A DNA stretch of 20,000 nucleotides from Candidatus Lindowbacteria bacterium RIFCSPLOWO2_12_FULL_62_27 (GCA_001784175.1 MFPR01000014.1:55797-75796), one strand, 5' to 3'. Positions 235-18,300 are shown, counted from the first letter of the stretch. The notes: a model not told the origin generated them from the sequence alone. A program made the numbers and translations.

Positions 235-2613
235 TCAGGGCGACAGACTCGGCCGGCAAATCAAGAGGCCCACGTACGCGATCAGTCCCAGTCCTGAAAG
301 CCATGCGCCGAGCCGGGCCAGGGGCGGCTCGTAGGCGAGGTCGATTTTGTGCTCGCCCTTGTCCAGCACGAGTCCCATGAATCCGATGTTGACCTTGCGC
401 AGATCCTGCCGGCGGCCGTTGACGGTTGCGGTCCAGCCCCGATCGAAAGGAATGGAGAGAAAGAGGATCTTCCGCCGGTCCAGCCTGAGCGTGCCCCGGA
501 TGAGATTCTGCCGGTATTCGGAGATCGCCAGCGAGTTTTCCTTCAACCGGCCCATCGACCGGACCAAGTCGTCCGCCGGCAGGTCCCGTGAAACGGTGGT
601 GATGGACTCCAGGCCGGCAAATTCGCCCTTGTCCGCGGGATCGATCACGCAGGCCCGCAGAAACGCCAGGGGTTTGACCGGGGCCTCCAGCGACTTGAAA
701 TCGCTGTGGAGCATGTAGGCGTCATAGGCGTACCCCAGCGGGAGAAAAAAATTGTTCTTGTAGAGATGAACATGCCCAAACGTTGCCACCTTTTCGTATC
801 CCAACTGCGGGAGATTCGTGGCCGTGCGGCGCGTGAGGGCATATTTGACGGCGAGCATCGTACGTATCATCGGATGGGCTTTTTCGACGCCGTCCGTCAC
901 GTGCGTGGACAGCTCGTCGGTTGGATCGATCACGCCCGCCTCTCCGAGAAACCGGATGTAATTGATTTGATTGAATGAATAATAGCTGGAGGTCCCCCGA
1001 AATCCCTGGATCTTCGCGTCATTGATCGAATAATGCATGGCCGGGCTGGACGAGTAATCTTTCGTGACGCGGAAAAATTCCGTGTCGGTGGCGTTCAGCC
1101 AGGCCACCGCGTCGACGGTGTAGTCGTTGTATCCGGTTTTCTCGTGAAGCGACGCGGCCGTCAGCGCGGATCTCGCGTCGATGGTTTGCACCGCGAAGTA
1201 GCCCATCTCGGCGGCGACGCTCGCCACAAGAAGCAATCGCGACACCCTGCCGAGGTTGCCGGCGCCCATCGCAAGCAGCAACACCGTATGCGCCGCCAGA
1301 AACGCGGCCGCCGCGCTCCGCAGGCCCGGGTCCACCCGCAGGCGGGGGTACGGGACAAACAAGACGACCAGGAGAACCGCGCACGTGACGATCAGGGTCG
1401 GCCGATCGAGTTTGGAGGAGCCGTCGATCAGGCCGAGGGCGCGCACGGCGAGGTGAATGATGAGAATCGTCAAGAACAGGGAAATGGTCCGATAATAATC
1501 GCCGCTGAACAGGTTGATCATGTACCTGAAAAATGGGAACACCAGAATCGCGACGGCGAGGGCGCAACCGCCGCCATACAGGCGACGGGTCTTGCGATCG
1601 GAGAGGGAAAAAAACTGCGGCAAAAGAAGGAGGCTGAGCAGGCCGGCGTAGAGAAGCGGCGCCTCGAAGTAATTGCCCCAGCCCCGGAACGCGCTACCGG
1701 CGCCCAGGAGGTCGTTCGAAAACAGGCGTAGCAGGATGGTGAGCGACTGTCCAAAGGTGTTGGTTTCCAATATCTGTTTCGCCGCCAGCTTGCTGAAGAG
1801 GGAGACCTCGCCGCTGACTCGCGGGCTCTGCAGCATCTGCAGGACGCCCGTCATCACGTACACGGCGCCCATGAGGACCCCGAGCGCCCACAGCCCGGCC
1901 AGCTTCGTCAGAAACACCGCATAGGCCCGCCCGAGCGGCCCGCGCTCCTCCCAGAAACGCAGCGTCGCGTATGCGGCCAGAAAGACCGTATCCATATACA
2001 GGAAATACGGCTGATCGATGCCGGCGCAGGCCACCGCAACAGGAATCAGACCCCAGCGGGACTGTTTGAAGAACCGCTCAAAGGCGTACAACAGGAATGC
2101 CACAAACATCGCCTCGGTCGGCGGAGAACGCCATGTGCCGCCCAGGACCATGTACCCGCAGAAGGTGTACAGGAGCGCGCCCATTCCCGACGCATAGGCC
2201 GAAATCCCCAGAAGCGACAGATAGCGGAAGAAGAAAACGCCGCACAACAGGATTTTCAGCAGATGGACATAAATCACCGCATACGGAATCAGCCGCGTCG
2301 GAAACAGGCTGAGGAGCAGCGCGGTCGGCTCGTTGATGGAATACGGAAAAATGTTCTGGCCCGCGCCCTGCTGAAAGGACCACCGCGGAATGCCGTCGGA
2401 CCTCAGATACTCCCGCAGGTGCACGTAGTGCGGATAATGCTCGTTCATCGTGTCGCTGCCGATGTCCTTGAAGAGAAAAATTTTCTCGAACAGCAGAAAG
2501 TCCTTGAAAACGATGAAAACGAGCAGCGCAATTAGAATGCCGAACGCGAGACCGGCCCCCGGGCCGCCCCGCGGGCGACGCAAGTCGGGCGGGTCCACGG
2601 AAACTTTTTTCAT
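235..2613 (-). CDS. YfhO-family polytopic membrane protein (putative GT-C glycosyltransferase), ~792 aa
   Basis: Many TM segments. The N-terminal loop reads D..NEHYP...L...L....IP.WSF..GAGQN and the C-terminus reads LFLSIPFDRGWTATVNG...VNIGFMGL.L..GEH.I.L.Y.PP...LG, both typical of YfhO. Start moved from 2811 to ATG 2613 (MKKV...) because the upstream extension overlaps the tRNA-like element and the hairpins. Confidence 0.85.
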   Translation of the reverse strand: MKKVSVDPPDLRRPRGGPGAGLAFGILIALLVFIVFKDFLLFEKIFLFKDIGSDTMNEHYPHYVHLREYLRSDGIPRWSFQQGAGQNIFPYSINEPTALLLSLFPTRLIPYAVIYVHLLKILLCGVFFFRYLSLLGISAYASGMGALLYTFCGYMVLGGTWRSPPTEAMFVAFLLYAFERFFKQSRWGLIPVAVACAGIDQPYFLYMDTVFLAAYATLRFWEERGPLGRAYAVFLTKLAGLWALGVLMGAVYVMTGVLQMLQSPRVSGEVSLFSKLAAKQILETNTFGQSLTILLRLFSNDLLGAGSAFRGWGNYFEAPLLYAGLLSLLLLPQFFSLSDRKTRRLYGGGCALAVAILVFPFFRYMINLFSGDYYRTISLFLTILIIHLAVRALGLIDGSSKLDRPTLIVTCAVLLVVLFVPYPRLRVDPGLRSAAAAFLAAHTVLLLAMGAGNLGRVSRLLLVASVAAEMGYFAVQTIDARSALTAASLHEKTGYNDYTVDAVAWLNATDTEFFRVTKDYSSSPAMHYSINDAKIQGFRGTSSYYSFNQINYIRFLGEAGVIDPTDELSTHVTDGVEKAHPMIRTMLAVKYALTRRTATNLPQLGYEKVATFGHVHLYKNNFFLPLGYAYDAYMLHSDFKSLEAPVKPLAFLRACVIDPADKGEFAGLESITTVSRDLPADDLVRSMGRLKENSLAISEYRQNLIRGTLRLDRRKILFLSIPFDRGWTATVNGRRQDLRKVNIGFMGLVLDKGEHKIDLAYEPPLARLGAWLSGLGLIAYVGLLICRPSLSP

Positions 2614-2644
2614 GATTCGGAAGAGGCTACCACACGAGGACGCG

Positions 2645-2785
2645 CCGTCCAAGGCAAACTTGGCCCTTGTGCGGCCCTTGTGGCAACGGGGACAATACAT
2701 CCCTGATGTCCCCGTCGCACCCTGGGCAATTTTCGTACTTCCTGTACGAAAATTGCCCTGCTCCAGGGACAATACATCCCTGTAT
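2645..2785 (-). repeat. Array of GGA-loop hairpins and direct repeats between the tRNA-like element and yfhO
   Basis: 17-nt direct repeat GGGACAATACATCCCTG at 2689-2705 and 2766-2782. Perfect 15-bp stem 2724-2738/2744-2758, with loop AGGAA on the minus strand. Tandem GGCCCTTGTG at 2662-2671 and 2673-2682. Confidence 0.85.
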
Positions 2786-2851
2786 GCCGGAGGAGGGACT
2801 TGAACCCACACGGGGGGTGACCCCCACGGGATTTTGAGTCCATCCAGCGGC
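2785..2851 (-). pseudogene. Truncated (D-arm-less) tRNA-Leu(CAA)-like element
   Basis: Minus strand 2840-2785 is 50/56 identical to tRNA 3157-3212. It has the CAA anticodon loop, variable arm, T arm and 3' acceptor strand. The 5' part is only GCCGCTGGATG, so the D arm is absent. Confidence 0.85.
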
Positions 2852-2878
2852 GGTGGCTATTGACCACCAATATGCGTA

Positions 2879-2907
2879 ATCGTAGGAAAATACGGGGATA
2901 AAAGCAA
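2879..2907 (-). promoter_or_regulatory. Putative sigma70 promoter driving the tRNA-like element and yfhO
   Basis: Minus strand TTGCTT (2907-2902), 17-nt spacer, TACGAT (2884-2879). Predicted start is about 2872. Confidence 0.6.
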
Positions 2908-2956
2908 TATGCATTTATGCTATGAGTTCCTTTTTGCACAATGGTATCGAATAGTT

Positions 2957-2977
2957 TTGGCAAAGTATTGGCAAAGT
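2957..2977. repeat. Tandem direct repeat TTGGCAAAGT x2 (11-bp period), a possible protein-binding or integrase arm-type site
   Basis: TTGGCAAAGT at 2957-2966 and 2968-2977. The repeat is seen directly; its function is inferred. Confidence 0.5.
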
Positions 2978-3041
2978 CATTTTCGCGAATGAATCGGGTT
3001 GGCCACCGTATGCGATTCCCTCTTTTCTATTTCAATATTCC

Positions 3042-3050
3042 TGATAAGAT
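3042..3050 (+). promoter_or_regulatory. Putative extended -10 promoter of tRNA-Leu
   Basis: TGnTAAGAT at 3042-3050, downstream of an AT-rich stretch. No clear -35. Confidence 0.4.
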
Positions 3051-3062
3051 TCGTGTGGTTGT

Positions 3063-3127
3063 CGTCCCTGCCTGACAGAATGACATCCATGTCATTCGAG
3101 GGCAGGGACGTAACCATCCATGGTTAC
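3063..3127. repeat. Two palindromic hairpins with CATCCATG apices, abutting the tRNA 5' end
   Basis: CGTCCCTGCC (3063-3072) pairs with GGCAGGGACG (3101-3110) and encloses GAATGACAT-CC-ATGTCATTC (3078-3097). The second hairpin is GTAACCAT-CC-ATGGTTAC (3110-3127). Confidence 0.8.
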
Positions 3128-3212
3128 GCCGGAGTGGCGGAACGGCAGACGCGCTAGACTCAAAATCTAGTCCGGGTCACCCCGGGTGTGGGTTCAAGTC
3201 CCTCCTCCGGCA
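3128..3212 (+). tRNA. tRNA-Leu(CAA), class II, CCA not encoded
   Basis: Acceptor stem GCCGGAG/CTCCGGC plus discriminator A. D arm GCGGAACGGCAGACGC. Anticodon arm CTAGA-CTCAAAA-TCTAG. Long variable arm CCGGG-TCAC-CCCGG. T loop GTTCAAGTC. Confidence 0.97.
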
Positions 3213-3224
3213 ATTTCAAATATC

Positions 3225-4379
3225 CTATTTTACAAGAGAAGGGCGTTTCGGAAACCCCGGAAACGTCTGCTCCACCGCACGGTCCTGTTCCGCCGCTCGC
3301 GTGGTTTCGGTGAGCGTTTTTTGTTCTTCACGAGTCGCCGTCGCTGCGGGCTGGTCCACAGTTTCTGTGGAGACGGTGGCCGCATCTTTTTCTGAAGCGG
3401 ACATACCCGCCGGCGTCACATCCGGCGTCGCATCTTTGGCGAGCTTCTGGTCCGCGTCCACGATGCCGGCCGGATCCTGAGCGTCGCGGATTTCGACGGA
3501 GTGCCCTTTTCCGGCGTCCTGAACAAAATCCATGGTTTTTTCGTCCAAAAGACCGATGTCCTTTTCTTCCGCGGCGCCGGCTTCCATGATGGCATTCTCA
3601 TTTTCCTGCAACCACTGGTTAAACTCACCGACGGCCTCTTTGGGAGTCTCTTCCGTACCGATATCACGTCCCGCCTCATCGGAGCGGTCTTCCTTGTCTT
3701 TTTCCGGCCTGCCGCCCTCATCCGCTTTTTCGCCTTTCTCATCCTTCTCGGACTTCTCATTCTTCTCGCCCTTCTCGTCGTCCTTTTTCTCCTTATCCTT
3801 GTCTTTGCCCCCTTCCTCTCCCCCTGCCTTTTGTGGGCTTAGGCCCAGGACTTCCTTCATCGCCCCCGGTAATTTGTTCGGATCCTGCGGCGCCATGAAT
3901 CCATGGCCTTCGAGCATCTTCATCTCCGTGCCGGTTTGCGGGAAATGCCCCACCTCCTGCTTGCTTCCCCGGATGCCGGCAACGGCGCTCGGCGTGGTTA
4001 CGTTGAACCGATTCTGTTTTCCGCTTTTCGCATTTACTTCCGTGACGACTTTGCCGACCTGAAGGAATAGTTCCGTATAGAATTTTTGGGAGTCCTCAAC
4101 CGTGCGCCCGATCACGAATTGGGTCATCGGTGTGATTTCGGTCAAGCTGTTCTCAAATGAAAGAACGGCGCTTCCGGAAATGCCGGTCGATATTTTGTCG
4201 CCGGGTTTTATCGGCATCCCTTTTGCGGCTTTCTGCCACTGCTTTTCGCCCCGCCGCATGATTTCGACGTTGCCTGTTACATCCGTCAGGACTCCAGTCA
4301 TGATCTCCGCGGCCGTCGCGGGCAAGACTAAATTCACGGCAAATAAAATAAACAAGGCCATGGTGAGTGTCCTATTCAT
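3225..4379 (-). CDS. Exported FecR-domain protein with a highly charged low-complexity C-terminal half, ~384 aa
   Basis: Signal peptide MNRTLTMALFILFAVNLVLPATAA. FecR-type motifs G.V.I...G...W..A..GM.I.PGD.I.TG and FNVTTPSAVAGIRGS. E/K/D-rich tract at about 3690-3830. Start placed at ATG 4379, which overlaps the upstream stop by 8 nt. Confidence 0.8.
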   Translation of the reverse strand: MNRTLTMALFILFAVNLVLPATAAEIMTGVLTDVTGNVEIMRRGEKQWQKAAKGMPIKPGDKISTGISGSAVLSFENSLTEITPMTQFVIGRTVEDSQKFYTELFLQVGKVVTEVNAKSGKQNRFNVTTPSAVAGIRGSKQEVGHFPQTGTEMKMLEGHGFMAPQDPNKLPGAMKEVLGLSPQKAGGEEGGKDKDKEKKDDEKGEKNEKSEKDEKGEKADEGGRPEKDKEDRSDEAGRDIGTEETPKEAVGEFNQWLQENENAIMEAGAAEEKDIGLLDEKTMDFVQDAGKGHSVEIRDAQDPAGIVDADQKLAKDATPDVTPAGMSASEKDAATVSTETVDQPAATATREEQKTLTETTRAAEQDRAVEQTFPGFPKRPSLVK

Positions 4380-4935
4380 TCCGCGCCACCTGCTTCGCCA
4401 TCGTCTGGGCAAGTTTGCTGACAAACCCCAGAAGATCCTTGCCGGAGACCACGTCGTCCGGAGACCGGTCTGACGGCAACAGGCCCAGATAAACAGCCTG
4501 TCTCACCGCATAACGCTGGCTGCCCGGAAAAACGCGTGCCATGACGCCGCCCTTCAACCGGAGCGCATCGATCATCATGTGCGCGAGATTGCCGGTGGTC
4601 AGGCGGCTGTTTCGAATCACGGCGACATCCTTGCGAAATTTCACGCCGCTCTCCGCCAGAAACCTCAACTCGGATTCAATCCTCTCAGGCCCGTCGTATC
4701 CTCCCAGCCGGGCAAGAAGCCGCACGGCGTCTTCGACCGTCGCGGTTTCCTTCCTGAAAAGCGCGGCATAGAACTCCGATTCGGACGCGGCAGATGCCGG
4801 AGAAAGTCCGATCCACCCGAATAGTAAAATGACCGTGATCGCCAGAGCGCGCGACGCCATGGACGGCGTCGTACCCGGAGTCGGAGATTCTGCGACACAC
4901 GGACGTGTCGCAGCCGACGGAGGGTGCGTTTTCAT
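4372..4935 (-). CDS. Exported hypothetical protein (helical, weakly SLH-like)
   Basis: Hydrophobic signal-like segment ALAITVILLFGWIGLSPASAA. ATGA overlap with the upstream gene; the true start may be the later Met of MASRALA. Motif LKGGVMARVFPGSQRYAVRQAVYLGLLP. Confidence 0.7.
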   Translation of the reverse strand: MKTHPPSAATRPCVAESPTPGTTPSMASRALAITVILLFGWIGLSPASAASESEFYAALFRKETATVEDAVRLLARLGGYDGPERIESELRFLAESGVKFRKDVAVIRNSRLTTGNLAHMMIDALRLKGGVMARVFPGSQRYAVRQAVYLGLLPSDRSPDDVVSGKDLLGFVSKLAQTMAKQVARNE

Positions 4936-6380
4936 AAATCGAGCGAGAACTTCAGGCGCATATAATTTTCAGCCCCGCGGTTCGTATACGCGGGGCCGGG
5001 CGAGAACCGGCCGAATTTGAACTGGTAGCTGATGTCCACGGCGGCTTTCCAAGCGACCGTCATGTCAAACTCCGAGCCGATCTTGCGAGACGATCCGGCG
5101 CCGGACGAAATGTAGGGATCCGACGTCACACCGGATGCCTTATCGCGCGAGTAAAGGTAGTACGTCGGCTGAACGGACATATCCGACCACAGCCGGTTGG
5201 CAGACCATCCAAACGGTTTCACGCTGGCGCCGAATTTGTAGACTTGGATATTGGTCAGCTGCGGGGCAAGCGCATATCCGAGCGTCAATCCGCCAAACGA
5301 GATGAACCGCTCATCCTTGCCGGCCGTGCTTCCGCCGAATGACGAGTTTGCGCTTCCCTGGGCGTCGCCGTCGCCGCTGCCGGCGGCGTACTCGACATAG
5401 AAACTGGGCGCCATGGCCGTCGCGAAGTAATACCGCAACCCTCCGTCGATCGCGCTGGATGAAATGCTGACTTTTGTAGTTCCGCCCGATGGATACGTTT
5501 TGCCGGACTCCTGAATATACATCGACCAGTATCGCAGATTGCCGATCACCCGTCCCTCAAATCCCAACCCGTAATAGAGCGAATCCAATTGATGGGGTTG
5601 GCCGGTTGCGGGATTGACGGATTCGTCATTCCGGTCCTGATTCATAAGCCCGAACAGATCCAGTGTCTGGGTCTTCATGAATTTCACTTTCCATTCCATA
5701 CCGTAGAACCAGCGTTTGGTCCGGCCCGATCCCGGTGAGAAATTGTCGATGTTGTCATCTGAAGGATTCTGCCGGGCGAAAAACACCTGAAACTCATTGA
5801 TCCGTGAAAGGGCCTTGTAATGCAAACCGTCAACCGTGAGTCCAAACGATATGCCGCGTTCGACCATGACGAACTGCCGGCCGAGCGTGATCTGATGTTT
5901 CCAGCCTCCCGCCGGATACTGTTGTTGCAGATACAGGAGATCGACCGCCGGTCCCACCATATCCCGGCGCCGGACTGCGCCTGTTGGCGTGGAATTGAGA
6001 GACTGGGTGGCTTTCATGCGCGCGTAAAATTGCGTCTTGCCTGACCGGCTGGCGACGTTGGTGAAAAATCGAAAATCGTTCTCCCACGTGTGGTCGAGGG
6101 AATCCTGCGCGGCCACATTCCTGTCGTTTTCGTCAGACGACGAATAAGATGGCGCGTACCAGCCGCCGAAATTCATGCGCCAGCCCAAACCGCGTGCGAG
6201 GCCGCGCGTGACCCATGAGGAGCTTCCCGAAAAATCCTGTGTGCGCTTGAGTTCGTCGAGCGTTTCAACCCGCTCCCGGCGGAGTTCTTCCTGGGACATC
6301 TGCGCGTATGAGCCGGCAGAAACCATGAGCCAGAAGCCGGCAGCCAGAATGAAAATCCCGATTCTGTATTTGACACTCAT
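4932..6380 (-). CDS. Outer-membrane beta-barrel protein, alginate-export (AlgE)-like
   Basis: Signal peptide, alternating amphipathic strands rich in aromatics and Gly, and motifs ITLGRQ, DGL, EYAAGSGDGD, KIGSEFD. Ends in a terminal beta-strand YMRLKFSLDL. ATGA overlap with the giant gene's stop. Confidence 0.7.
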   Translation of the reverse strand: MSVKYRIGIFILAAGFWLMVSAGSYAQMSQEELRRERVETLDELKRTQDFSGSSSWVTRGLARGLGWRMNFGGWYAPSYSSSDENDRNVAAQDSLDHTWENDFRFFTNVASRSGKTQFYARMKATQSLNSTPTGAVRRRDMVGPAVDLLYLQQQYPAGGWKHQITLGRQFVMVERGISFGLTVDGLHYKALSRINEFQVFFARQNPSDDNIDNFSPGSGRTKRWFYGMEWKVKFMKTQTLDLFGLMNQDRNDESVNPATGQPHQLDSLYYGLGFEGRVIGNLRYWSMYIQESGKTYPSGGTTKVSISSSAIDGGLRYYFATAMAPSFYVEYAAGSGDGDAQGSANSSFGGSTAGKDERFISFGGLTLGYALAPQLTNIQVYKFGASVKPFGWSANRLWSDMSVQPTYYLYSRDKASGVTSDPYISSGAGSSRKIGSEFDMTVAWKAAVDISYQFKFGRFSPGPAYTNRGAENYMRLKFSLDL

Positions 6381-9300
6381 CTAGCCACCGCCAGCTTGTC
6401 GACGAGTTTCGTGCCGGGCGTTTCGAGGATGTAAATGTAAACTCCCGACCCGACTTTCTGGCCAAACCGGTTGGTCGTATCCCAGATGACCAGATTGGAT
6501 CCGGGATTTCCCTGGTGCTTGAATTCCCGCACGAGCCGGCCGCCGACATCGTAGATTTTCAAAGTCACGTCACCGGCCACCTGCAGATTGTATTTGAACG
6601 TCATGCTGCCGGTTGTACCGTCCGGCCCGGGATTGGGGTATACGAACGTCTGGCTCTTGTCGAGATTGGGCGACAAAAACGCGCCCAGATATTCGGGCAA
6701 TCCCACCGCGACTGTCAGTTTCAACGACGATCCGGCGGCAAGAACGGCGGACGAGGATTTGCGCAGATTCACCGGCCCTTGCGGCAAACCCACGAGATAG
6801 GCGCCGTATTTTTCCGGCACGGATTCAAGATTGTTCCAATTTAACAGGATGTTGTCCTTCAAATCGCTCGACACACCCAATGACCAGCTCCTGGCGGTTG
6901 TCACCGGTTCCGCGTAGGCCGCCGCGAGTCTGTTGCCGTTCTCTGCCACAACTCCAAGCGAGACAAAATTGCTAGCCACCGGCGGCGGCTCGTATCGTTC
7001 AGCGGCGGTCGCTTCTTCCGCTTTTGAAACGACGCCGATATAATTCTGAAAATCCTGCATGCCGCCGGCCGCGGCGGTAAGTTGGATCGTCCAGTTCTGG
7101 TCCGACGCGGCATCCTGCTGATAGACCGCCGACAAAAGTTTAGGCGCCTGATTGAGAACCTCGGCGGCCGTTTCGGGTGGAACGGATGGGTTGGGATAAA
7201 TCGTCATGTTGCAGGCTTTTTTCGCGTACATAAAAAATCCGACCGTCGGTTTCAAATGTATTGCCGACAGGGATGGCCGATTGATATCCGGACCCCAAGT
7301 ATAGTCACTTGATCCGTTCCACCAATAGACAGCATTCTGGATTAATCCGGCGGCCTCGGCCTTGGCCGGCGTTAGTTTTTTGTCGCCGGTATCAAACCGG
7401 ACATCCGAGTCCCAGCTCACATAGAAATACTGCCCGCTGCCGACCTGATGCCAACCAGTCTTGAGGGCCACCGTTATGGTGTCATAACCGGCGGTTCCCT
7501 GGAAATCGATCGTGCCGCTCGCATTTTGCGGATCAAAGATCCAGTACCCGCGGCCGCGAACCAGCGCGGAGGGCGTGACATAGTCGCGTTCTCCTGCCGC
7601 CGTTCCCGCATCCTGATTCCATTCCCCGATGTTGGAGAGCGGAAATTTGGCTTTGATCGCATTCTGAACATCCGCGACCGTCAGCGACTTGTTGGGCGCG
7701 ATCATCTTGAACACCGACTTGGATATCTCGAGTCCGTCCGCATACGCCACAAAAGCATCCTTGAGCGCGGAGTTCGACGCAACGGTAACAGCGACATGGT
7801 AGGGTCCGCGACGGGCGCCGAGCGTCAGCGTGTCACAGGCCATCCCGCTGTTGTCCGTGATGACGGTACTCAGCGCCAGACTCGCTCCCGCGCCGCCCGC
7901 GGGGACGGCGATCGAGAACGTCACGGCCTGGCCCGGGACGGGATTACCGGTGTCGTCTTTCAACACGACGCAGAGCGGGCTTGGCAAGATTGTGGAGTGC
8001 GTGCCCAACTGGTGGTTGTTGAGAAGAATGATCTTTGTCGGCAACCCCGGAACCGCAACCCTGAACCGCCTCGACGTAGAGTTCAATCCGACATTCCGCA
8101 ACCGGTCAATGGCCCGGACACGCCAGTAATACGTGCCGTCGCTAAGATTGGCCACGGTGTCGCTCGTCCTGCTTGCAGAAACCGTGTCAGCAAACAGCAA
8201 ACTCGAAAATGTCGGTGAGCTTGAAAGCTCCAACACGTAAGAATCGATCCCAACACTATCGGCAAGATTCTTCCACGACAGAACCGGTCTCGATGTCGTC
8301 GTTTCCTGTTGATCCGCCGGCGAGGCCAACTCCACCCTGTCGGCGTGGGTGTCCAGCAGAAAGACGCGCACGGCGGTATCGACCTTCCCGACCCGGTCGC
8401 GGCCGATGACCCGCCAATAGAATGTGTCCTCGCTTGAAATCCTTCTGACGATGCTTGCGGCGCTCGTATCCACCACGCTGTCTGTGAGGACGGAGAAAGA
8501 CGCCGCGTTCGACATCTGCCAAGTATACGTCTCGGCGTCGTCCGTCGACCACGAGAACGTCAAAATGGCCGACGTCGTTTCCAATCCGTTGCCGGGCGAG
8601 GCAAGAATAATCTTCACGCCGGTATCAAACCGGAAGGCAAAGGTCGTCGAGTTAAGACCAATGTTTTTCAGATGATCCACCGCGCGCACGCGCCAGTAAT
8701 ATGTATCCTCCTCGGTCAACGCCGGTACCGTATCGGTCGTCAGCGAGCCGCGGACGGTATCGACAAAGACAAACGACATAAACGCGGATGTCCGGGAAAC
8801 TTCCACGACGAAACTGTCGATCCCGACACTGTCCGACACACTCTGCCATGTGAGCGCCGGCTTGGTATCCACGATCGCAACCCCGTTTGCGGGCGATACC
8901 AGCGTCACTTGAACGACAAACGTGTCGATGACCAGGCCGCGCGGCGACGAGTAGGAACTCAGGTTTCCGAGTTTATCGATGGAACGAATGCGCCAGTAAT
9001 AGGTATCGTTGGCAGACAGGATGAGCGTGTCGCTGGTCCGCGTGCCGACGATGGTATCGGCGAATACAAGAGATGAAAACGAAGGAGTCAGTGACACCTC
9101 AATCACGTAACTGTCGATGCCCACGCCGTCGATGACGGCGCCCCAGCTCACGACCGGTCGGACGTTGGTCGTCTCGTGGCCGTCGGCCAGCAGCAGAGAC
9201 GAAACCGCCGCCGCATCCGTATCGACAACCAGCCGGCGGGACGGCGGCGAATCAAGTGTGTTTCCGAGTTTGTCGATTCCTCGCACTCGCCAGAAGTACG

Positions 9301-12300
9301 TGTCGTTATACAGGCCGGTCAGCGTGTCGGTCGTGCGGTTTGAAGCCACGGTGTCAACGAACACCAGCGTCGAAAACGCCGTTGTCTTGGAAACTTCAAC
9401 AACGTAGAAATTAATACCGACACTGTCGGCGAGAGAGAACCAACTGACAACCGGTTTGACGTTCGTGGTTTCATGCGCATCGGCCGGCCGGTCCAGCAAA
9501 ACCTGCCCGGCGGATGTATCGACAACAAACCCTCGTGCCTGGGAATTGGCTCCAATATTTCCAAGCCGATCTATGGCTCGGACACGCCAGAAATATGTGT
9601 CATTATAAAGGTTCGACAGAGTGTCGCTGGTTCGCAGTCCCGAAACGGTGTCAGTAAAAATGAGAGCGGTGAATAACGTAGATTTGGACACTTCGACGAT
9701 GAACGAATCGATGCTGACGCTGTCTGCGAGGGCAACCCAGGACACAAGCAGTTTAGTGTTCGATGTTTCATACCCATCTGCCGGTGAAAGAATCGAAACC
9801 TGTCCTACAGACGCATCCAACATCACCGAGCGCGCCGCTGTCGTATCAACGGCGCCGTATGTGTCCTTCGCAATGACTCGCCAGTAAAATGTGTCCTCGT
9901 AGGGCAGATTTCGCACAAGAGCAGTTACTTTTGTATCGACCACGCTGTCTGCGGACGTAGAAAACGACGATGTCCTAGAGAGCTGCCAGGTGTAGGTTTC
10001 CGCCGTTGGAGAAGACCATTCAAACCTTAGCCATATCGAATTAGTCTCGTATCCGCTCGCGGGTGATATGGCGGTGACTGACACAACCGTACTTACCTTC
10101 GTGCCTTTCGTGTCGGTGAAAAACGATTGATTCATCCGCGTGGCGGCGTCAAATGAAGTGAGTCTATAAAAATAGGTGTTCCCAGCGGCGACTGCGGTGT
10201 CGATCCAGCTTGTGTCCGACGCACCCGCCGTCCAAACGAGATTGGCCGGATTGGCCCAGTTGTTGGTATCCGCCACATTGGTCAACCTGTATATGTTTAC
10301 GCCGGCGTGTCCCACGGATCCGCCGTTGGTTTCTTCATTGACTGTCGGAATCGTCCATGTAATTTGAATCTGGCCGGCGGTGACTGTATCAAGGATCACA
10401 GTTGCCGGAGGCGCCGGCGCGGTGGTGTCGGCGCCAGCAGATGTGTCTGCGGGACCGAGACGATAAGGCACATACGTGACAGAACCCCCTGCAGCGTTTT
10501 TCAATCGATTGGCTATCGCCAGCTCGTCGGTAGTGCTCCACCAGTTTCTGCTAAAATTCACTGTTTGGTTTGTTCCATTGAACACACCGCTGTCCCTGTT
10601 CACCGACGCTGGGGTAATGTTATTTTTCACGATTGTGTTGGCGGTGGATGTTCCATCCAAATAGAACTGATATCCACCATTAGAATCTGATGCATTTTGA
10701 ACAAAAACATTCGTTTCTGCGGAACTCAAATAGTACCCATGACTGAAATTGCTCGTGCTCGAGTTGTTGGAAAGAACATTTGAACTGGAGGTTGACAACC
10801 ATACCCCGAAATACGCGTTCTGATGGGCCCGGTTATTGTCCAATTTGTTGTTATTGCTTGCGCCATTCAGAAAAAAGCCGTATTGGGCGTTGCCTGCACT
10901 GTAATTGTCCATTAAAATATTGCTCGCGCACGAAATATTTAGAATAAATCCCGCCGCACTATTTCCAACGCTTTTGTTATTTTTTAGGATATTACTGTTC
11001 GCATTTTGCAAGAGAAAGCCGTAGGCGAGATTGTTTGAGCAGGTGTTGCCAATCAATGTGTTCATATTACTGTACGCGTTCAAAAAGATGCCGGAATTTG
11101 AATTGTCCACAACAAGGCAATTAATAATAGAATTCGAATCCGAATTATTGGTCAGGGTAATTCCCAAATCTCTGCTCAAACGAACCGTCACATTCTCCAG
11201 AGTCGAACTGTCAACGTTTACCCATTCGATACCGGCATGGTAATTGCGTATCCCAAGGTTCTTGACCAGAAGTCCTGATTGGGTGTCCGCAAATATTCCC
11301 TTGCGGCCCAAACTGCTATCGCCCCCCTCTAAAATTGTCGATGCCGAGTCCACGCCGATAATCGATATTCTATTTGTATCGATCACAATTGTTTCCGAAT
11401 ATATTCCGGCATCCACAAATATCGTGTCCCCCGATTTGGCTTTTTGAAGTGCTTTGGCAACGGATCGATATGGTTTCGAAGGCGAACCCTCGCCGCCAGT
11501 GTCAGATCCGAAAGCATAGGTGTAAGAATCTTCTACCACGTAACTGTCATTCACGTACCACTTCGGACCCGCATATGGGGCTGGGGTAGTGATCGCAAAT
11601 GTCTCTTCGGGCGCCCACACCGACCGCATCATGCCGCCGTCGACAGCCTGGACGGACCAGTAGTAGGCGCCTGCCGGCAAGGATCGGATGAGATAAGCGA
11701 AGGTGTCGTTCTGCACATTGCCGAGGATGGTGTTGCCGATTGAATCAGAGCTGTTGGTATCGGCGGCGACGATGTCGGCTTTGCCGGGGGCGGAACCGAC
11801 TCGCAGGTTGTACGTCATGGCATTGGCGGACGTGGAGTCGGTGGTGACTTTGGACCATGTGAGTACCATGGTATCACCCTGTAAAAACGATACGCCCTTT
11901 GGACTCAACAATGTCGGCATACTTGGTCTAATATTCATTGAACCGTTGGCATCGTTACGAAAGAGAATCAATCGATATGTTCCTGTACTTGATTGTCCAG
12001 AAACCGCCAAATCAAGGTCGCCGTCATTGTCGTAATCACCCCACTGAATTGAACTGTAATCGACACCTTGATTGACGCCCATGGGCTCTGCAACGTTTGT
12101 AAAACTATCGATTCCGTTATTCCTATAAATAATCACTCGCCTGCTTCCAGAGGCGGCAAGGTCAAGGTCTCCATCGTTATCGTAATCACCCCACTGAATC
12201 GAGCTATACGCAAGACCCACGTTCACGCCCAACGGTTCCAACACATTGATGAAATTATCACCGCCCGAGTTTCGAAATATAATAAACCGTTCACCACTTG

Positions 12301-15300
12301 TTATGCTGCGTCCGGAAACCGCAATATCCAAATCGCCGTCGTTATCGTAGTCACCCCACTGGATGGATCCATCATATACCCCCACACTGGCCCCCATTGG
12401 TTCAGCAACCTTTGCAAAACTATCGCCACCATTATTTCTATAAATGATGAATCTATAGGATGCACCATCATATCCAGAAACGGCCAGATCAAGATCACCA
12501 TCTCCGTCATAGTCACCCCACTGAATAGAACTCTCATCAAGACCTGATCCCGCGCCCATTGGTTCTGCCACTTTTGTGAAGGTCGTATCACCATTATTTC
12601 GATACAGGACCAATCGTCTGACTACTCCATCGAACCCAGAGACAGCCAAATCCAGGTCACCGTCATTATCGTAGTCACCCCACTGAATTGACCCTTTGTC
12701 GACCCCTCCCATACCGGGACTTGTCGGTTCGACGGCGCTTGTAAAACTACCCCCACCACTGTTTCTGTAGATAACCAATCTTCTGGTTGAATTATCATCA
12801 AACCCCGAAATGGCCAGATCAATGTCTCCATCGTTGTCATAGTCGCCCCACTGGATCGAACTCCTGTCTACACCTCCACCAGGTATCAAGGGCTCGGCCG
12901 CATTTGTAAAGCTACCGACGCCGTTATTACGAAAAACAATCAAGCGTCGATACAGCCCATCCTGTCCTGATATCACCAAATCCAAATCCCCATCTCTGTC
13001 GTAATCACCCCACTGAATAGATCCGTCATACACTCCTGAGCCGGCTCTGACCCCCATCTCCGTGTCTAGTGTAAAGCCAGAAGGCTTGGCTGATACGATG
13101 CTGTCGGAGTAAAAAGATTCATTCGGAATGGTAGCACTATCCCTGGTGGTAATCCTGTAGTGGTGCGCCATACCTAGTGTTGCGGTTGTGTCTGTATAGG
13201 TTTGTCCCGAACTTGTTCCAATCCGAATCCAGCTCGACGTATCCACCATCGGCGCGCGATAAACTTGATACTGGTATACGGCTGGCACACCCGTGACACC
13301 TTCTTCATTCGCCGACACAGACGACCAACTCACATTCACCTGCCCCGAACTCTGCGGTGCTGTCGCCACTACCGTGTCTGGCGCTTTGGGTGCAACCGTG
13401 TCCACTCCTAGCGCTGTGTCCACAGGCCCGAAACGATAGGGAAGAAATGACGAGGCCGTATCCCTGACCCTTGCCGCTATGACTGACTCATCCGTCGAAC
13501 CATACCAGTTACGCGCGATGTTCTGCACCAACCCAGACGAGTTGCCGATTGCGGCGATCGTGTTGTTGTAAAAGTTGTTCTTGGCAATCGTATTGTTCCT
13601 TGTCGTTCCGTACAACCACACGCCGGAGTCGCCGCCGGCGACGTCGTTTTGCGCGATCGTGTTCGTATCGGCATTATAAATAAATGCGCCGGCCCGGGTG
13701 TTGGATGCGATGCGGCAATTCGAGACCAGGTTGTCGTTGGAGGAGCCGCTGATATAGACACCGTAGAGCGAATTCGTCAGGATCGTATCGCCGATGATGC
13801 GGTTGCCGCCTGAACTACTTTCGGCCGCGATGCCGTATTGGGAATTGGAACTTGCGGTATTGTTGATGATGGTGTTGGCTGTGCAGGAGGATATCAGATT
13901 AATGCCCACAGAGTTGCCTGTGGATGAGTTATTTTGAATCAGGTTGGAGCTCGAACCCGATACGATGTAAATGCCTCTATAGGTCGAGGAGATGGCGTTG
14001 CCTTGAACGACGTTGTTCGACCCGGCCTGCAATATAATGCCGTCGCTTGTCGGCCCACTCACCGTGTTGACCGTTACTGTGCATCCTTGGCCGTAGTACA
14101 GCCCGATCCCCCAGTTGCCGTTCGACGCGGAGGTGTTGCCGGAGACGGTGTTGTTCCATCCGGACACAAAAATGCCGTTGGTGCCGTTGGATTTCGTGGT
14201 GTTGCCACTCACCAGGTTACTCGAGCCGTAGAGATGGATTCCGGAGCTGTTGGCCATCGTGCCGTTCGTGTTAAAACTACCGATGTTGTTCGTCAGGGTA
14301 TTCGAATCGCATCCGTTCAGGAGATATATCCCGTTGTTGGTGGAGCTTACGCTGTCCGAGACGATGGCCGACAGATCGACATTCAGGAAATGAATTCCGA
14401 TGAGCGCGCCTGTCACGCCAATGTTTTTGACGGTCAGGCCGACTTGGGTGTCGGCATAAATGCCGTAGAGACCAGAAACTGAACTATCGCCGGGCGGGTC
14501 GATGACCGTGGCGCCGGAGTCCTTGCCGATCAGCGAAATATAATCGGTGTCGATGACGACAGTTTCCGAGTAGAGGCCGGCGTCAACGTAGATCGTGTCG
14601 CCAGACTTGGCCTTTGACAGTGCTTTGGCGATCGAGCGGTAGGGGAACGTCGAAGAACCATTGCCAAGCGTATCGGACCCGGCCGAATAGGTATAAGAAT
14701 CCGCCGCAGTATACTGATCGTTCACAAACCATTTCGGGCCGCTATAGGAAGAAAGGACGATAAACATTTCGGGCGCGGGCCACACGGATCGTTGCATGCC
14801 GCCGTCCACCGCTTGGGCGGACCAGAAATATTGGCCGTGGGGGAGATTCTTCAAAGATGCCGTCGTACCGTTCTGGACATTCCCGAGGATTGTGTTTCCG
14901 ATGGAATCAGATGAATTTGTATCTGCGGCGGCAATATTCGTGCTTAGCACAGTGGTGCCGACCCGAATATTATAGGTCTGAGACGCCACGGGTGTTGCAT
15001 CTCCCAGCGCGGAGGTCCATGCAAGTGTTACCGTATCGATCTGACTGAAGGTCGTACCTTTCGGAGAAACAAGAGTTGGCGCCGGCGGTCTTACGTTGGA
15101 AGGACCAGTTAAATCGTTGCGATAAACTACGAGCCTGTACTGCGATGTCGCGGAGTTATAACCGGCGGCGGCAAAATCAAGGTCGCCATCATTGTCGTAA
15201 TCGCCCCACTGGACGGATGAATTCCCATTACTGCCATCGACCCCGGCGTTTACTCCCATGGGTTCAGCAACATTCGTGAAGTTGTCTGATCCATTGTTTC

Positions 15301-18300
15301 TGAAAACTATTAATCGTGAAGAAGATGGACCATAACCGGAAACGAGCAAATCAAGATCTCCGTCGTTGTCATAGTCTCCCCACGCAATCGACGATCGCTG
15401 AACGCCGGTGAGGCTTGCCACATTGGTAAAAGTATTTCCGCCGTCATTTCGATAAATGATCGTTGATGCGCCACCCGGCTGAGCGAATCCGGAAACCGCC
15501 AAGTCCAAATCACCGTCGTTGTCATAGTCTCCCCACTGGATTGATGACAACTGCAGCCCGCTTGTAGATCCACCCAGCGGTTCCGCAACATTTATAAATG
15601 TTTCTCCGCCGTCGTTTCTATAGACGGTCAATCGATAACTGGTTGAGTTGTCCAATCCGCTAACTGCAAGATCGATGTCACCGTCGTTGTCGTAGTCACC
15701 CCACTGGATTGAACCCTTATATACGCCAACATTGACCCCCATGGGTTCTATAGCACTTGTGAAAGTACCGCCCCCGTCATTCCTATAGATAATCAGACGC
15801 GGCGATGTTGAGTTAATGGGCAATATCGTTCCAGAAACTGCAAGATCGAGATCGCCGTCATTGTCATAATCACCCCACTGTATAGAAGCATAGATGAGGC
15901 CTCCCCCTTCCCAAACATTCGTAAATGTTCCACTGCCATCATTTCGAAAGATGGTTAATCTTAGGCCTGATCCAACCCCGTCTCCCGCGACAGCCAAATC
16001 AAGATCCCCGTCTTTATCATAGTCACCCCATTGGACCGAACTTTGATGTACGCCCGCATTTGCCCCCATCGGCTCTGCGGCATTTGTGAATGTCCCGGCG
16101 ACGTTGCGATAAATGATCAGCCGGGCGCCGGATCCGGATGTGCCTGAAGTGACCAGATCCAAGTCACCGTCGTTGTCATAATCTCCCCATTGAATTGAGG
16201 CACTAAAAAATCCCGTTCCGGCTCCATACGGTTGTGCAACCAGTGTCCACACGGAAGACGAGGCACTTGCTGCAGCTTGAGTCGTATCCGAAAAAAAGCT
16301 CTGGTTCACAGGCGATCCTGCGTCATAAGATGTCAGTCGGTAGTAATAGGTATTTCCCCCTGTAACCGCATTGTCATTCCATGTGGTTTCCGTCGAGGTC
16401 GCTGTATATACGAGATTGGCGCCGTTAGCCCAGTTGGTAGTATCAGCCAGATTCGTCAGGCGATAAATCTTCGCCCCGCTGTAAGCGACCGCGCCCCCGT
16501 TCGTTTCTTCGTTGATCGTGGGTATAGTCCACGAGACTTTGATTTGTCCTGCGGCACTTGCGTCAAGCGTGACATTGGCTGGTGGGGCAGGGGCGGTCGT
16601 GTCTACTCCTGCAACTGTATCTACGATACCCAATCGGTAGGGAATGAAGAATACGGAGTCGCCGTTCGATTCTTGATAAATCTTACGCTTGATGGACACC
16701 TCGTCCGTCGTGCCCCACCAGTTGCGTATGAACGAGAATCTGTTTCCTGTGACGGTCGATGCGACGTATACACCGCTGTCCGGATTTTCCGGGGTGGTTC
16801 GGATGATATTTTTTTGGACAGTATCAGAGTGCGATGCTCCCACAATTTTGAATTGCCACAGGCGATTTGAATCAAGCGTGTTCTGGACGAAAACATTCTT
16901 GTTGGATGCGTTCAATAAAACGCCGTGCGAATTGTTGAAGCTGACGTTGTTTGAAAAGAAATTATTATCCGAGGAACCAAGTGCGATTCCTTCGGGATTA
17001 CCGATGACACTATTGCCGTGGAATACGTTGTTGCTGTTCAGATAATCGAGATAAATCCCGTATGTCCCGTTTGAGGTAAACGTGCTGCCCAGGACCGTAT
17101 TGTTGTCGGAATACGAAAGACGCATGCCGTCTTGGGAATTGCTCGTGGATTGTGAATTCTGAACCAATACGTATGTACAATGGTCTAAATCAATCCCAAT
17201 CTGTTCGTTACCGGTACTGACGCACTTTTCAATTGTGTCCGCCGAGGAGTAATAAGCATAAATCCCAAACCCACAGTTGCGAGTAGTTATATTTTCAATG
17301 CTGGATCGCGATACGTTGTCCAGGCGAATACCGTAGAATCCTCTTTGAATGAGAAGATTGCTTATTCTGATGGCAGAACGATTGGCCGCATATATGACCT
17401 TCAAATTCGATCCGGAACTGCTGTCACCGGCGTCGATGATTGTACCTGTCGGACTTGAATCGACTCCAATAATCCATATGGAATCGATACCGATCGTGAA
17501 GGATTCGGGATAGTGACCCCGGTCGATAAGGATCGTATCGCCCGCTTGGGCAAAGCTCAGCGCCTTGGCCGCCGTTCGATATGGTGAATTCTTCGTGCCG
17601 GTACCCGACGTGTCCGAACCACTGGCATACGTATACGAGTCCGACCCGGACACGTATGTATCATTCACAAACCACATTGTTTTCTGGGCATATGCAGTTT
17701 TCGTGTCGGAATTGAAGAAAGACTGATTTGTAATGGATGCCGAGTCGAACGAGGTTATCCTGTAGTAATAATTATTGCCGGTGGTGACGGTCGTATCGAT
17801 CCACGACGATTCAGAGGCTGTGGCAACATGAACCAGATTGACAGTATTCGCCCAGTTTGACGTGTCAGGCAAATTTTTCAATCGATAAATTTTAGCGCCT
17901 GTGTATCCGACAACACCGCCGTTGGTTTCTTCAGTCGTCGAAGGCCCAGCCCACGTCAATTGGATGGACCCGTCCGATGTGGCGGTAACCGTGAGCACCG
18001 GCGGAGCCGGCGCGGTTGTGTCGGCGCCCTGGGTGGTGTCCACCGTCCCGAGTCGATACGGTATGAAGACAATAGAGTCAGCACCCGTGGGAGCGCCACT
18101 CACCATTTTCTTAATCTTTATTTCATCGGTTGTATTCCACCAGTTGCGGGTGAAGGTGAATTTGTTAGCCGCGGCCGTCGAAGCATTGTACACTCCGCTG
18201 TCAGGATTGGTTTGCGAGGTATTGATATTGTTCTTTTGAATCGTATCACTTGAAGACGCGCCATCAAGATAAATTTGATATTTGACATTTGAATCCAATG

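Follow-up and report, generated by a model that had tools for sequence, protein, structure and literature searches.

What is the 3' part of a leucine tRNA gene doing, inverted, between an intact copy of that gene and the start of a membrane-protein gene in Candidatus Lindowbacteria bacterium RIFCSPLOWO2_12_FULL_62_27? The locus lies in a window of 20,000 nucleotides, the whole stretch of DNA that was analysed, from whose first letter all positions are counted. The original prediction had seen here a D-arm-less tRNA-Leu(CAA)-like RNA of 67 nt with its own promoter, heading the leader of yfhO and perhaps expressed as a tRNA mimic or processing element, and had named an integrase attachment scar as the mundane alternative. 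The reading that we favor, and consider probable, takes the unit to be a remnant, now dead, of another tRNA-Leu(CAA) gene besides the live one, whichever of two routes discussed below produced it. The elements that have to be compared are the following:

2785..2840, minus strand: tRNA-Leu(CAA) remnant, in inverted repeat with 3157-3212 (50/56); it holds the anticodon loop, preceded by the last 2 nt of the 5' stem strand and followed by the 3' stem strand, and then the variable arm, T arm, acceptor 3' strand and discriminator A
3128..3212, plus strand: live tRNA-Leu(CAA), class II, 85 nt, with no encoded CCA (ARAGORN, Rfam)
2785..2811, unstranded: left copy of a perfect 27-nt inverted block (T arm and acceptor 3' strand), partner 3186-3212
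3186..3212, unstranded: right copy of the same block, partner 2785-2811

The inverted repeat pairs 2785-2840 on the minus strand with 3157-3212; its arms are 56 nt long, 50 of the 56 positions are identical and 316 nt lie between the arms, which the repeat finder reports as 89% complementary. The minus strand of the remnant corresponds to positions 30-85 of the live tRNA-Leu(CAA), with runs of identity of 11, 2, 10 and 27 nt, and a 23-nt motif from the T arm and acceptor strand occurs in exactly two copies in the 20-kb window, where a motif search expects 0.00 by chance. The homology starts in the anticodon stem and runs precisely to the discriminator base, with which the tRNA ends; past it the 3' flanks show no relation, nor do the 100 nt that precede the remnant resemble those that precede the live tRNA. 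Since the match is bounded in this way on both sides, the parent of the remnant was a separate gene and not a local segmental copy. The remnant stands head to head with the live gene, 287 nt from the 5' end of the latter; it is in the sense orientation relative to yfhO, with 171 nt between its own 3' end and the start codon of that gene (ATG 2613) downstream. The tRNA homology noticed in the original prediction is real, and it extends over 56 nt rather than 67. The neighbor is, as had been stated, an intact gene of 85 nt, called by ARAGORN at 3128-3212; it scores 56.1 bits against the Rfam tRNA model, and its predicted cloverleaf (-36.4 kcal/mol) lies only 1.6 kcal/mol above its minimum free energy fold (-38.0 kcal/mol).

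The homology raises the question of whether the remnant could still be a tRNA or a tRNA-like RNA. With default settings ARAGORN calls only the live tRNA in the window and leaves the remnant uncalled, and at the Rfam gathering threshold the single match in the window is again the live gene, with none on the remnant or the leader. Of the Rfam models, tRNA-Sec scores best on the remnant, reaching 20.5 bits where 47 are required. A pseudogene or partial call had been expected from such programs; none appears at default, and one does when the ARAGORN threshold is lowered to 80% (-ps80), as a 92-nt unit at 2782-2873 with a poor cloverleaf: the acceptor stem is mismatched and includes G-U pairs, the D stem has only 2 bp and the T arm is displaced. 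The unit shows no homology to tRNA positions 8-29, so that the D arm is missing, and its acceptor stem comes to only four contiguous pairs and one possible further pair instead of 7 bp.

Folding points in the same direction. The proposed cloverleaf (4-bp acceptor stem, 3-bp anticodon stem, 5-bp variable arm and 5-bp T arm) evaluates to -22.4 kcal/mol, while the minimum free energy fold is a rod-like hairpin of -37.7 kcal/mol (z -4.6; 0/200 shuffles as good); on this purely thermodynamic prediction the cloverleaf is worse by 15 kcal/mol. In the predicted ensemble the T-arm and anticodon-stem pairs have a probability of 0.0, which disfavors the proposed retention of a 3-bp anticodon stem and a T arm as structures, whereas the pairing proposed between GCCG at the 5' end and CGGC at the 3' end is indeed predicted, with a probability of 0.99 (0.97-1.0). 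We considered that the remnant's own substitutions might have created the rod and rejected this, because a control with the live allele folds in the same way at -34.5 kcal/mol. The remnant is thus predicted to fold alone as a rod-like hairpin and not as a cloverleaf. Among tRNA-like RNAs, the mascRNA family is known from eukaryotes. The proposed topology of the remnant resembles it in having an acceptor-like closure, a central arm and a T-arm sequence, and the mascRNA model (RF01684) aligns exactly to 2786-2851; however, its score of 14.6 bits is far below the cut-off, 42.5 (E 1.2 when 141 nt were searched), and no T arm is predicted to form in the candidate. With the cloverleaf disfavored and every tRNA or tRNA-like model below its threshold, the remnant is most likely not a working tRNA or tRNA mimic.

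The differences between the two copies are informative about the parent of the remnant. There are six, at tRNA positions 41, 42, 45, 46, 57 and 58, all in stems and all consistent with pairing. Positions 41 and 42 belong to the 3' strand of the anticodon stem, where the opposite strand of the remnant retains only three fitting bases; the other four lie in the variable arm and exchange two C-G pairs for G-C. When six substitutions were placed at random in the 56 nt, 89/300,000 simulations gave at least two stem pairs in which both bases had changed and pairing was kept, which bears out the claim that four of the six differences are compensatory. The variable arm of the remnant is fully paired, with pair probabilities of 0.97-0.99 or higher (to 1.0). 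Because the differences from the live neighbor preserve pairs, the parent was once functional, and the remnant derives from a different tRNA-Leu(CAA) allele, the origin that had been proposed and that the variable-arm changes support. The divergence arose under selection for tRNA structure, which could have acted either on the parent of the remnant or on the live gene. The compensatory changes do not show present-day constraint on the remnant itself. The anticodon stem of the live gene is fully paired between its own two strands, and for this reason the live gene is not a chimera of a parent gene and an incoming element.

Upstream of the homologous part, four further elements enter the argument:

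2841..2851, minus strand: 11-nt 5' flank closing the predicted rod (pair probability 0.99 for GCCG/CGGC)
2852..2868, minus strand: predicted hairpin of 6 bp with a 5-nt loop, adjoining the candidate 5' end and ending at -1
2879..2907, minus strand: promoter-like hexamers TTGCTT-17-TACGAT, a base-rate match
2841..3127, unstranded: head-to-head spacer from the remnant to the live tRNA, distinct in composition

Nucleotides 1-4 and 7 of the 11-nt flank are the bases of the live acceptor 5' strand (5/7), and the flank is either a chance sequence or a decayed acceptor strand. As a matter of similarity it is not significant: against tRNA positions 1-29, 985/1000 shuffles are as similar, and by chance a 7-mer with no more than two mismatches to the acceptor strand would turn up among 24 positions with P 0.43. 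As a matter of folding it does better, as only 18/3000 random 11-mers from the window stabilize the fold of the remnant equally well; across flank lengths the per-length p is 0.005-0.075, and when all lengths are taken together 7/400 random flanks reach an equally small minimum p. The hairpin at 2852-2868, which had been described as abutting the unit just as a hairpin abuts the intact tRNA, does exist, and the live tRNA and the candidate 5' end each have a hairpin of 5 bp or more whose last base is at -1; for such hairpin ends the base rate per position is 0.025 across the window and 0.05-0.06 within this intergenic region. The flank closure and the adjoining hairpin thus have modest statistical support, which is suggestive only because the tests were run after the pattern had been picked; they keep an internally deleted whole gene and a constrained RNA among the rivals. 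Just upstream of the live tRNA we also observed two hairpin-forming palindromes (3078-3097 and 3110-3127) with the common center CATCCATG, of which the first sits within an outer stem of 10-11 bp (3063-3073 / 3100-3110; z -6.5 for 3055-3135) and the second ends at -1 of the tRNA.

The claim that the remnant has its own promoter is not supported. The hexamers TTGCTT (2907-2902) and TACGAT (2884-2879), 17 nt apart, match 3+4 of the 12 positions of the sigma-70 consensus, which may not be the promoter type of this lineage, and the 20-kb window contains 729 plus-strand and 693 minus-strand sites that match at 7/12 or better, or about 36 per kb per strand. A scan of 2400-3500 for sigma-70 sites of 9/12 or better gave 0, with the same proviso about the consensus. 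The G+C content is 0.41-0.46 in 2801-3100 and 0.55-0.65 around it, and the spacer 2841-3127 is likely the place of the tRNA and yfhO promoters, none being identified there. Within this spacer a tandem 11-nt unit at 2953-2977 is present in two copies that are 91% alike; an exact 10-mer occurs twice in it (2957-2966, 2968-2977) and has no further exact copy in the window, and the spacing gives a GG-N10-GC pattern that is reminiscent, at the level of sequence, of sigma-54 promoters.

On either side of these elements lie the genes whose transcription they might affect:

235..2613, minus strand: yfhO-family membrane protein gene, 792 aa from ATG 2613 (Pfam YfhO, E 1.2e-62)
2614..2784, minus strand: yfhO leader from the remnant to the start codon, a chain of stable hairpins
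3225..4424, minus strand: FecR-domain ORF, convergent with the live tRNA; 13 nt separate its stop from the tRNA 3' end

The gene downstream of the remnant, yfhO, codes for a membrane glycosyltransferase, and the RNA leading to it is unusually structured: over 265 nt, beginning at 2875 and reaching the start codon, it has a predicted fold of -130.4 kcal/mol (z -6.2 for 2611-2875), with 0/200 shuffles as good. One hairpin begins 2-3 nt past the 3' end of the remnant. Further on, perfect 17-nt direct repeats (2689-2705 and 2766-2782) flank a perfect 15-bp palindrome (2724-2758); the repeats and the palindrome each lie within a stable hairpin (z -7.9 for 2686-2785), and neither element has other copies in the window. 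They could be protein-binding sites, arm-type sites of a recombinase or a small inserted element. An attenuator was also considered and dropped, the terminator-like site at 2768-2756 overlapping two stronger hairpins and being missing from the minimum free energy fold.

The coding assignment of this stretch was examined as well. The YfhO call in the database (821 aa) starts at an ATG within the first 17-nt repeat of the leader, and its alignment with a 54%-identical homologue starts at residue 44, which makes the 792-aa form from 2613 more plausible. None of the three minus-strand frames is interrupted by a stop within the remnant, which the ORFs 235-2811, 2610-2963 and 2627-2914 cross. The second and third of these have no Pfam match, the 95-aa ORF spanning the remnant has no database relative, and the small ORFs of the spacer and the leader retrieve nothing in Pfam or PHROGs at E <=0.01. 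ORFs confined to 2610-2963 are probably not genes. For annotation, the remnant should not be called a tRNA, and the 821-aa yfhO call is probably too long.

Beyond the FecR-domain ORF, and also on the minus strand, follow a 187-aa ORF without a family, an Alginate_exp-like ORF and an ORF of at least 4540 aa. The last (6377-19999) runs off the window and contains NosD, right-handed beta-helix and FG-GAP repeats, and together with the Alginate_exp-like porin, the 187-aa ORF and the FecR-domain protein it looks like a surface-protein or secretion-type cluster. The antisense of the variable arm and anticodon loop of the live tRNA includes a terminator-like site on the minus strand (3185-3172), which might end this upstream operon. 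No integrase, excisionase, transposase or phage family was found among the window ORFs tested or the intergenic small ORFs. A search of the window for a second copy of the 5' half of the tRNA gave a best score of 19, which 19/20 shuffled windows reach; a 12-nt match at 3287-3298 was accordingly rejected as being at chance level.

How, then, did the remnant come to lie where it does? Fragments of tRNA genes are a common by-product of integrase-mediated insertion, and Williams is said to have set out, in 2002, the classes of sublocation that integrases use. In its full form the reading that we prefer, a dead remnant that includes an att-type 3' fragment relocated by a rearrangement, is put forward tentatively. 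A second tRNA-Leu(CAA) gene would have been cut at its anticodon stem-loop by recombination of the tyrosine-integrase type, leaving an att-type 3' fragment, and a later rearrangement would have placed this fragment beside the live gene. Today the remnant would have no sequence-specific function; either from a yfhO promoter in the AT-rich spacer or by minus-strand read-through of the operon, it would be transcribed as one more hairpin of the leader. The start of the homology in the anticodon stem supports this route because that is the commonest crossover class for island integrases: in the Islander study, 2083/3919 islands are anticodon-centered and 3760/3919 leave 3' fragments (PMC4383910). 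tRNA fragments scattered by later events are described in another report (bioRxiv 10.1101/2020.12.28.424599), and there is a precedent for an inversion that put a partial and a full tRNA copy on opposite strands (PMC9897764).

The resemblance to the tRNA fragments at the ends of islands and prophages (attL/attR) is close in some respects and fails in others. As in the cases described, the remnant is a 3' fragment that reaches from the anticodon stem-loop to the discriminator base, in an allele slightly different from that of the live gene (PMC4383910, PMC9897764), and as in Islander it is an end fragment that starts at the anticodon region (PMC4383910). On the other hand, Islander has the 3' fragment downstream of the full gene and in the same orientation, with an integrase and an island of 2-200 kb between gene and fragment (PMC4383910); here the remnant is inverted and upstream of the sole tRNA-Leu of the window, at 316 nt, with no integrase or island between the copies or within 20 kb. 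The live anticodon stem is moreover not chimeric, and the 5' flank of the remnant is complementary to its 3' end. The neighboring tRNA is not the attL partner, as it is inverted, on the wrong side and 316 nt away, no integrase is encoded in the window and the stem shows no chimerism; since the pair fails the orientation, configuration, length and integrase filters of Islander, an extra, unobserved rearrangement is needed. A recombination scar is the right kind of explanation, while the simple version that takes the neighbor as attL fails. A further parallel is the inversion that followed prophage integration in Thermococcus kodakarensis, which likewise left partial and full tRNA copies on opposite strands; those lie about 179 kb apart and have a recognizable prophage history, whereas here 316 nt separate the copies and no element is visible (PMC9897764).

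Several observations sit less easily with a pure att scar. There is no degenerative change in 56 nt, so that the remnant must be young, refreshed by gene conversion or constrained. Neither the stabilization by the flank (7/400) nor the adjoining hairpin is predicted by such a scar, and the sense orientation of the remnant upstream of yfhO, which would allow a role in the leader, counts against a dead remnant.

A dead remnant could also have arisen without any mobile element, a route that we consider unlikely, if the minus strand had once carried, around 2785-2870, a complete tRNA-Leu(CAA) gene, divergent from the live one and with the AT-rich promoter region in common, and this gene had lost roughly positions 8/10-28, which hold the D arm and the 5' anticodon-stem strand. 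Such an internal deletion accounts for the inverted head-to-head position with no extra rearrangement, and it agrees with the homology ending exactly at the tRNA 3' end, with a hairpin ending at -1 of both units and with a flank whose nucleotides 1-4 and 7 repeat the acceptor 5' strand and whose closure beats random sequence (18/3000; 7/400 experiment-wise). But the homology of the flank taken alone is insignificant (985/1000 shuffles; P 0.43), and the flank tests are post hoc, the pattern having been picked beforehand. The acceptor strand would carry two mismatches in seven positions and extra bases next to 56 undecayed nucleotides, an unevenness that needs gene conversion; at the same time, paralogues 300 nt apart are expected to homogenize, and not to keep four diverged pairs. 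Finally, the end of the deletion would have to coincide with what is, in Islander, the commonest integrase crossover site (PMC4383910).

It is less probable still, and in our view rather doubtful, that the 67 nt are an expressed, tRNA-derived module at the head of the yfhO mRNA that is under structural constraint, serving as a tRNA-like processing signal for RNase P or RNase Z, or as a stabilizing, structured 5' module. Those two enzymes recognize the minihelix of acceptor and T arms, and this minihelix is not predicted for the remnant because its fold is a rod without a T arm. The position would suit such a role, in sense and 171 nt upstream of yfhO, adjoining the AT-rich spacer where a promoter is expected; so would the absence of decay across 56 nt, the closed and very stable fold (-37.7 kcal/mol, z -4.6, 0/200 shuffles), the better-than-chance closure by the flank, the unusual structure of the whole leader (z -6.2) and the hairpin 2-3 nt after the 3' end of the remnant. 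Yet the compensatory changes speak only for a functional parent, the promoter match is no better than the base rate, the rod forms even without the substitutions of the remnant (-34.5 kcal/mol in the live-allele control), and the scores stay below threshold for the tRNA models and at 14.6 vs 42.5 bits for mascRNA. Of the tRNA mimic or processing element first proposed, the cloverleaf and the promoter are thus unsupported, while the flank closure with its hairpin finds modest support.

The geometry also invites comparison with invertible DNA. As in invertons, inverted repeats, here derived from tRNA-Leu, flank a short AT-rich intergenic segment (316 nt, between divergent genes), and inversion would keep the tRNA intact: when 2812-3185 is inverted in silico, an identical tRNA-Leu appears at 2785-2869 on the minus strand, co-directional with yfhO. 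The 56-nt repeat of the remnant is far longer than typical inverton repeats. In the present state, an RNA reading through from the upstream operon on the minus strand, past the FecR-like gene, would contain the antisense of the live tRNA together with the remnant and is predicted to pair both arms into a long duplex (z -8.9). In vitro, an integrase with tRNA-Leu as its target can invert the DNA that lies between two tRNA-Leu copies in inverted orientation (PMC5495485); by analogy this would give a switch a mechanism, and it is no evidence for one here. That a tyrosine recombinase targeting tRNA genes, or RecA, flips the 374-bp segment 2812-3185 between the 27-bp blocks, such that the flipped tRNA and promoter region would read into the yfhO leader and render expression of a surface glycosyltransferase phase-variable, is highly improbable, as no recombinase gene lies in the window or nearby, no second orientation has been observed, any inverted relic gives the same geometry, and the sigma-70-like matches are at base rate with none at 9/12 or better (for a consensus that may not be that of the lineage).

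Relatives of the locus are few. Searching genome contigs for YfhO matched 75 stretches, only two of which encode relatives (26-28% identity); these two distant loci come from a Rudaea MAG and a Eubacteriales MAG, and none is from this lineage. The YfhO protein cluster has three members on eight contigs, and the next relative of the protein is 54% and the third 43% identical (276 hits among 8000 candidates scored); the FecR-like protein has its next relatives at 43-60% identity. Both flanking proteins find their nearest named relative in a Candidatus Lindowbacteria MAG. In that MAG the yfhO and FecR-like homologues have distant locus tags, for which reason the two sides of the tRNA locus are not neighbors there; this is weakly compatible with a rearrangement breakpoint here, the homologues being only 54-60% identical. 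A BLAST search with 2600-3230 matched 37 phage and 88 plasmid records; among the matches listed (20 of the 37 and 20 of the 88, respectively), all cover the live tRNA only (query 519-629, 73-79%) and none extends to the spacer or the leader.

Taken together, these observations describe an ordinary kind of object in an unusual position. None of the literature searched describes an inverted tRNA fragment beside its gene as a regulatory device. If the inverted geometry were functional, the tRNA gene could be flipped without damage and would drive an adjacent surface-modification gene; alternatively, if that reading were true, a tRNA-derived hairpin would have been co-opted as a module of an mRNA leader. 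Either function, if true, would be an unusual reuse of integrase debris, for which the support consists of the geometry and a modest folding statistic. For the organism itself, the remnant marks a likely point of rearrangement at a tRNA gene in a very sparsely sampled lineage, in which the nearest relative of the YfhO protein is 54% identical.
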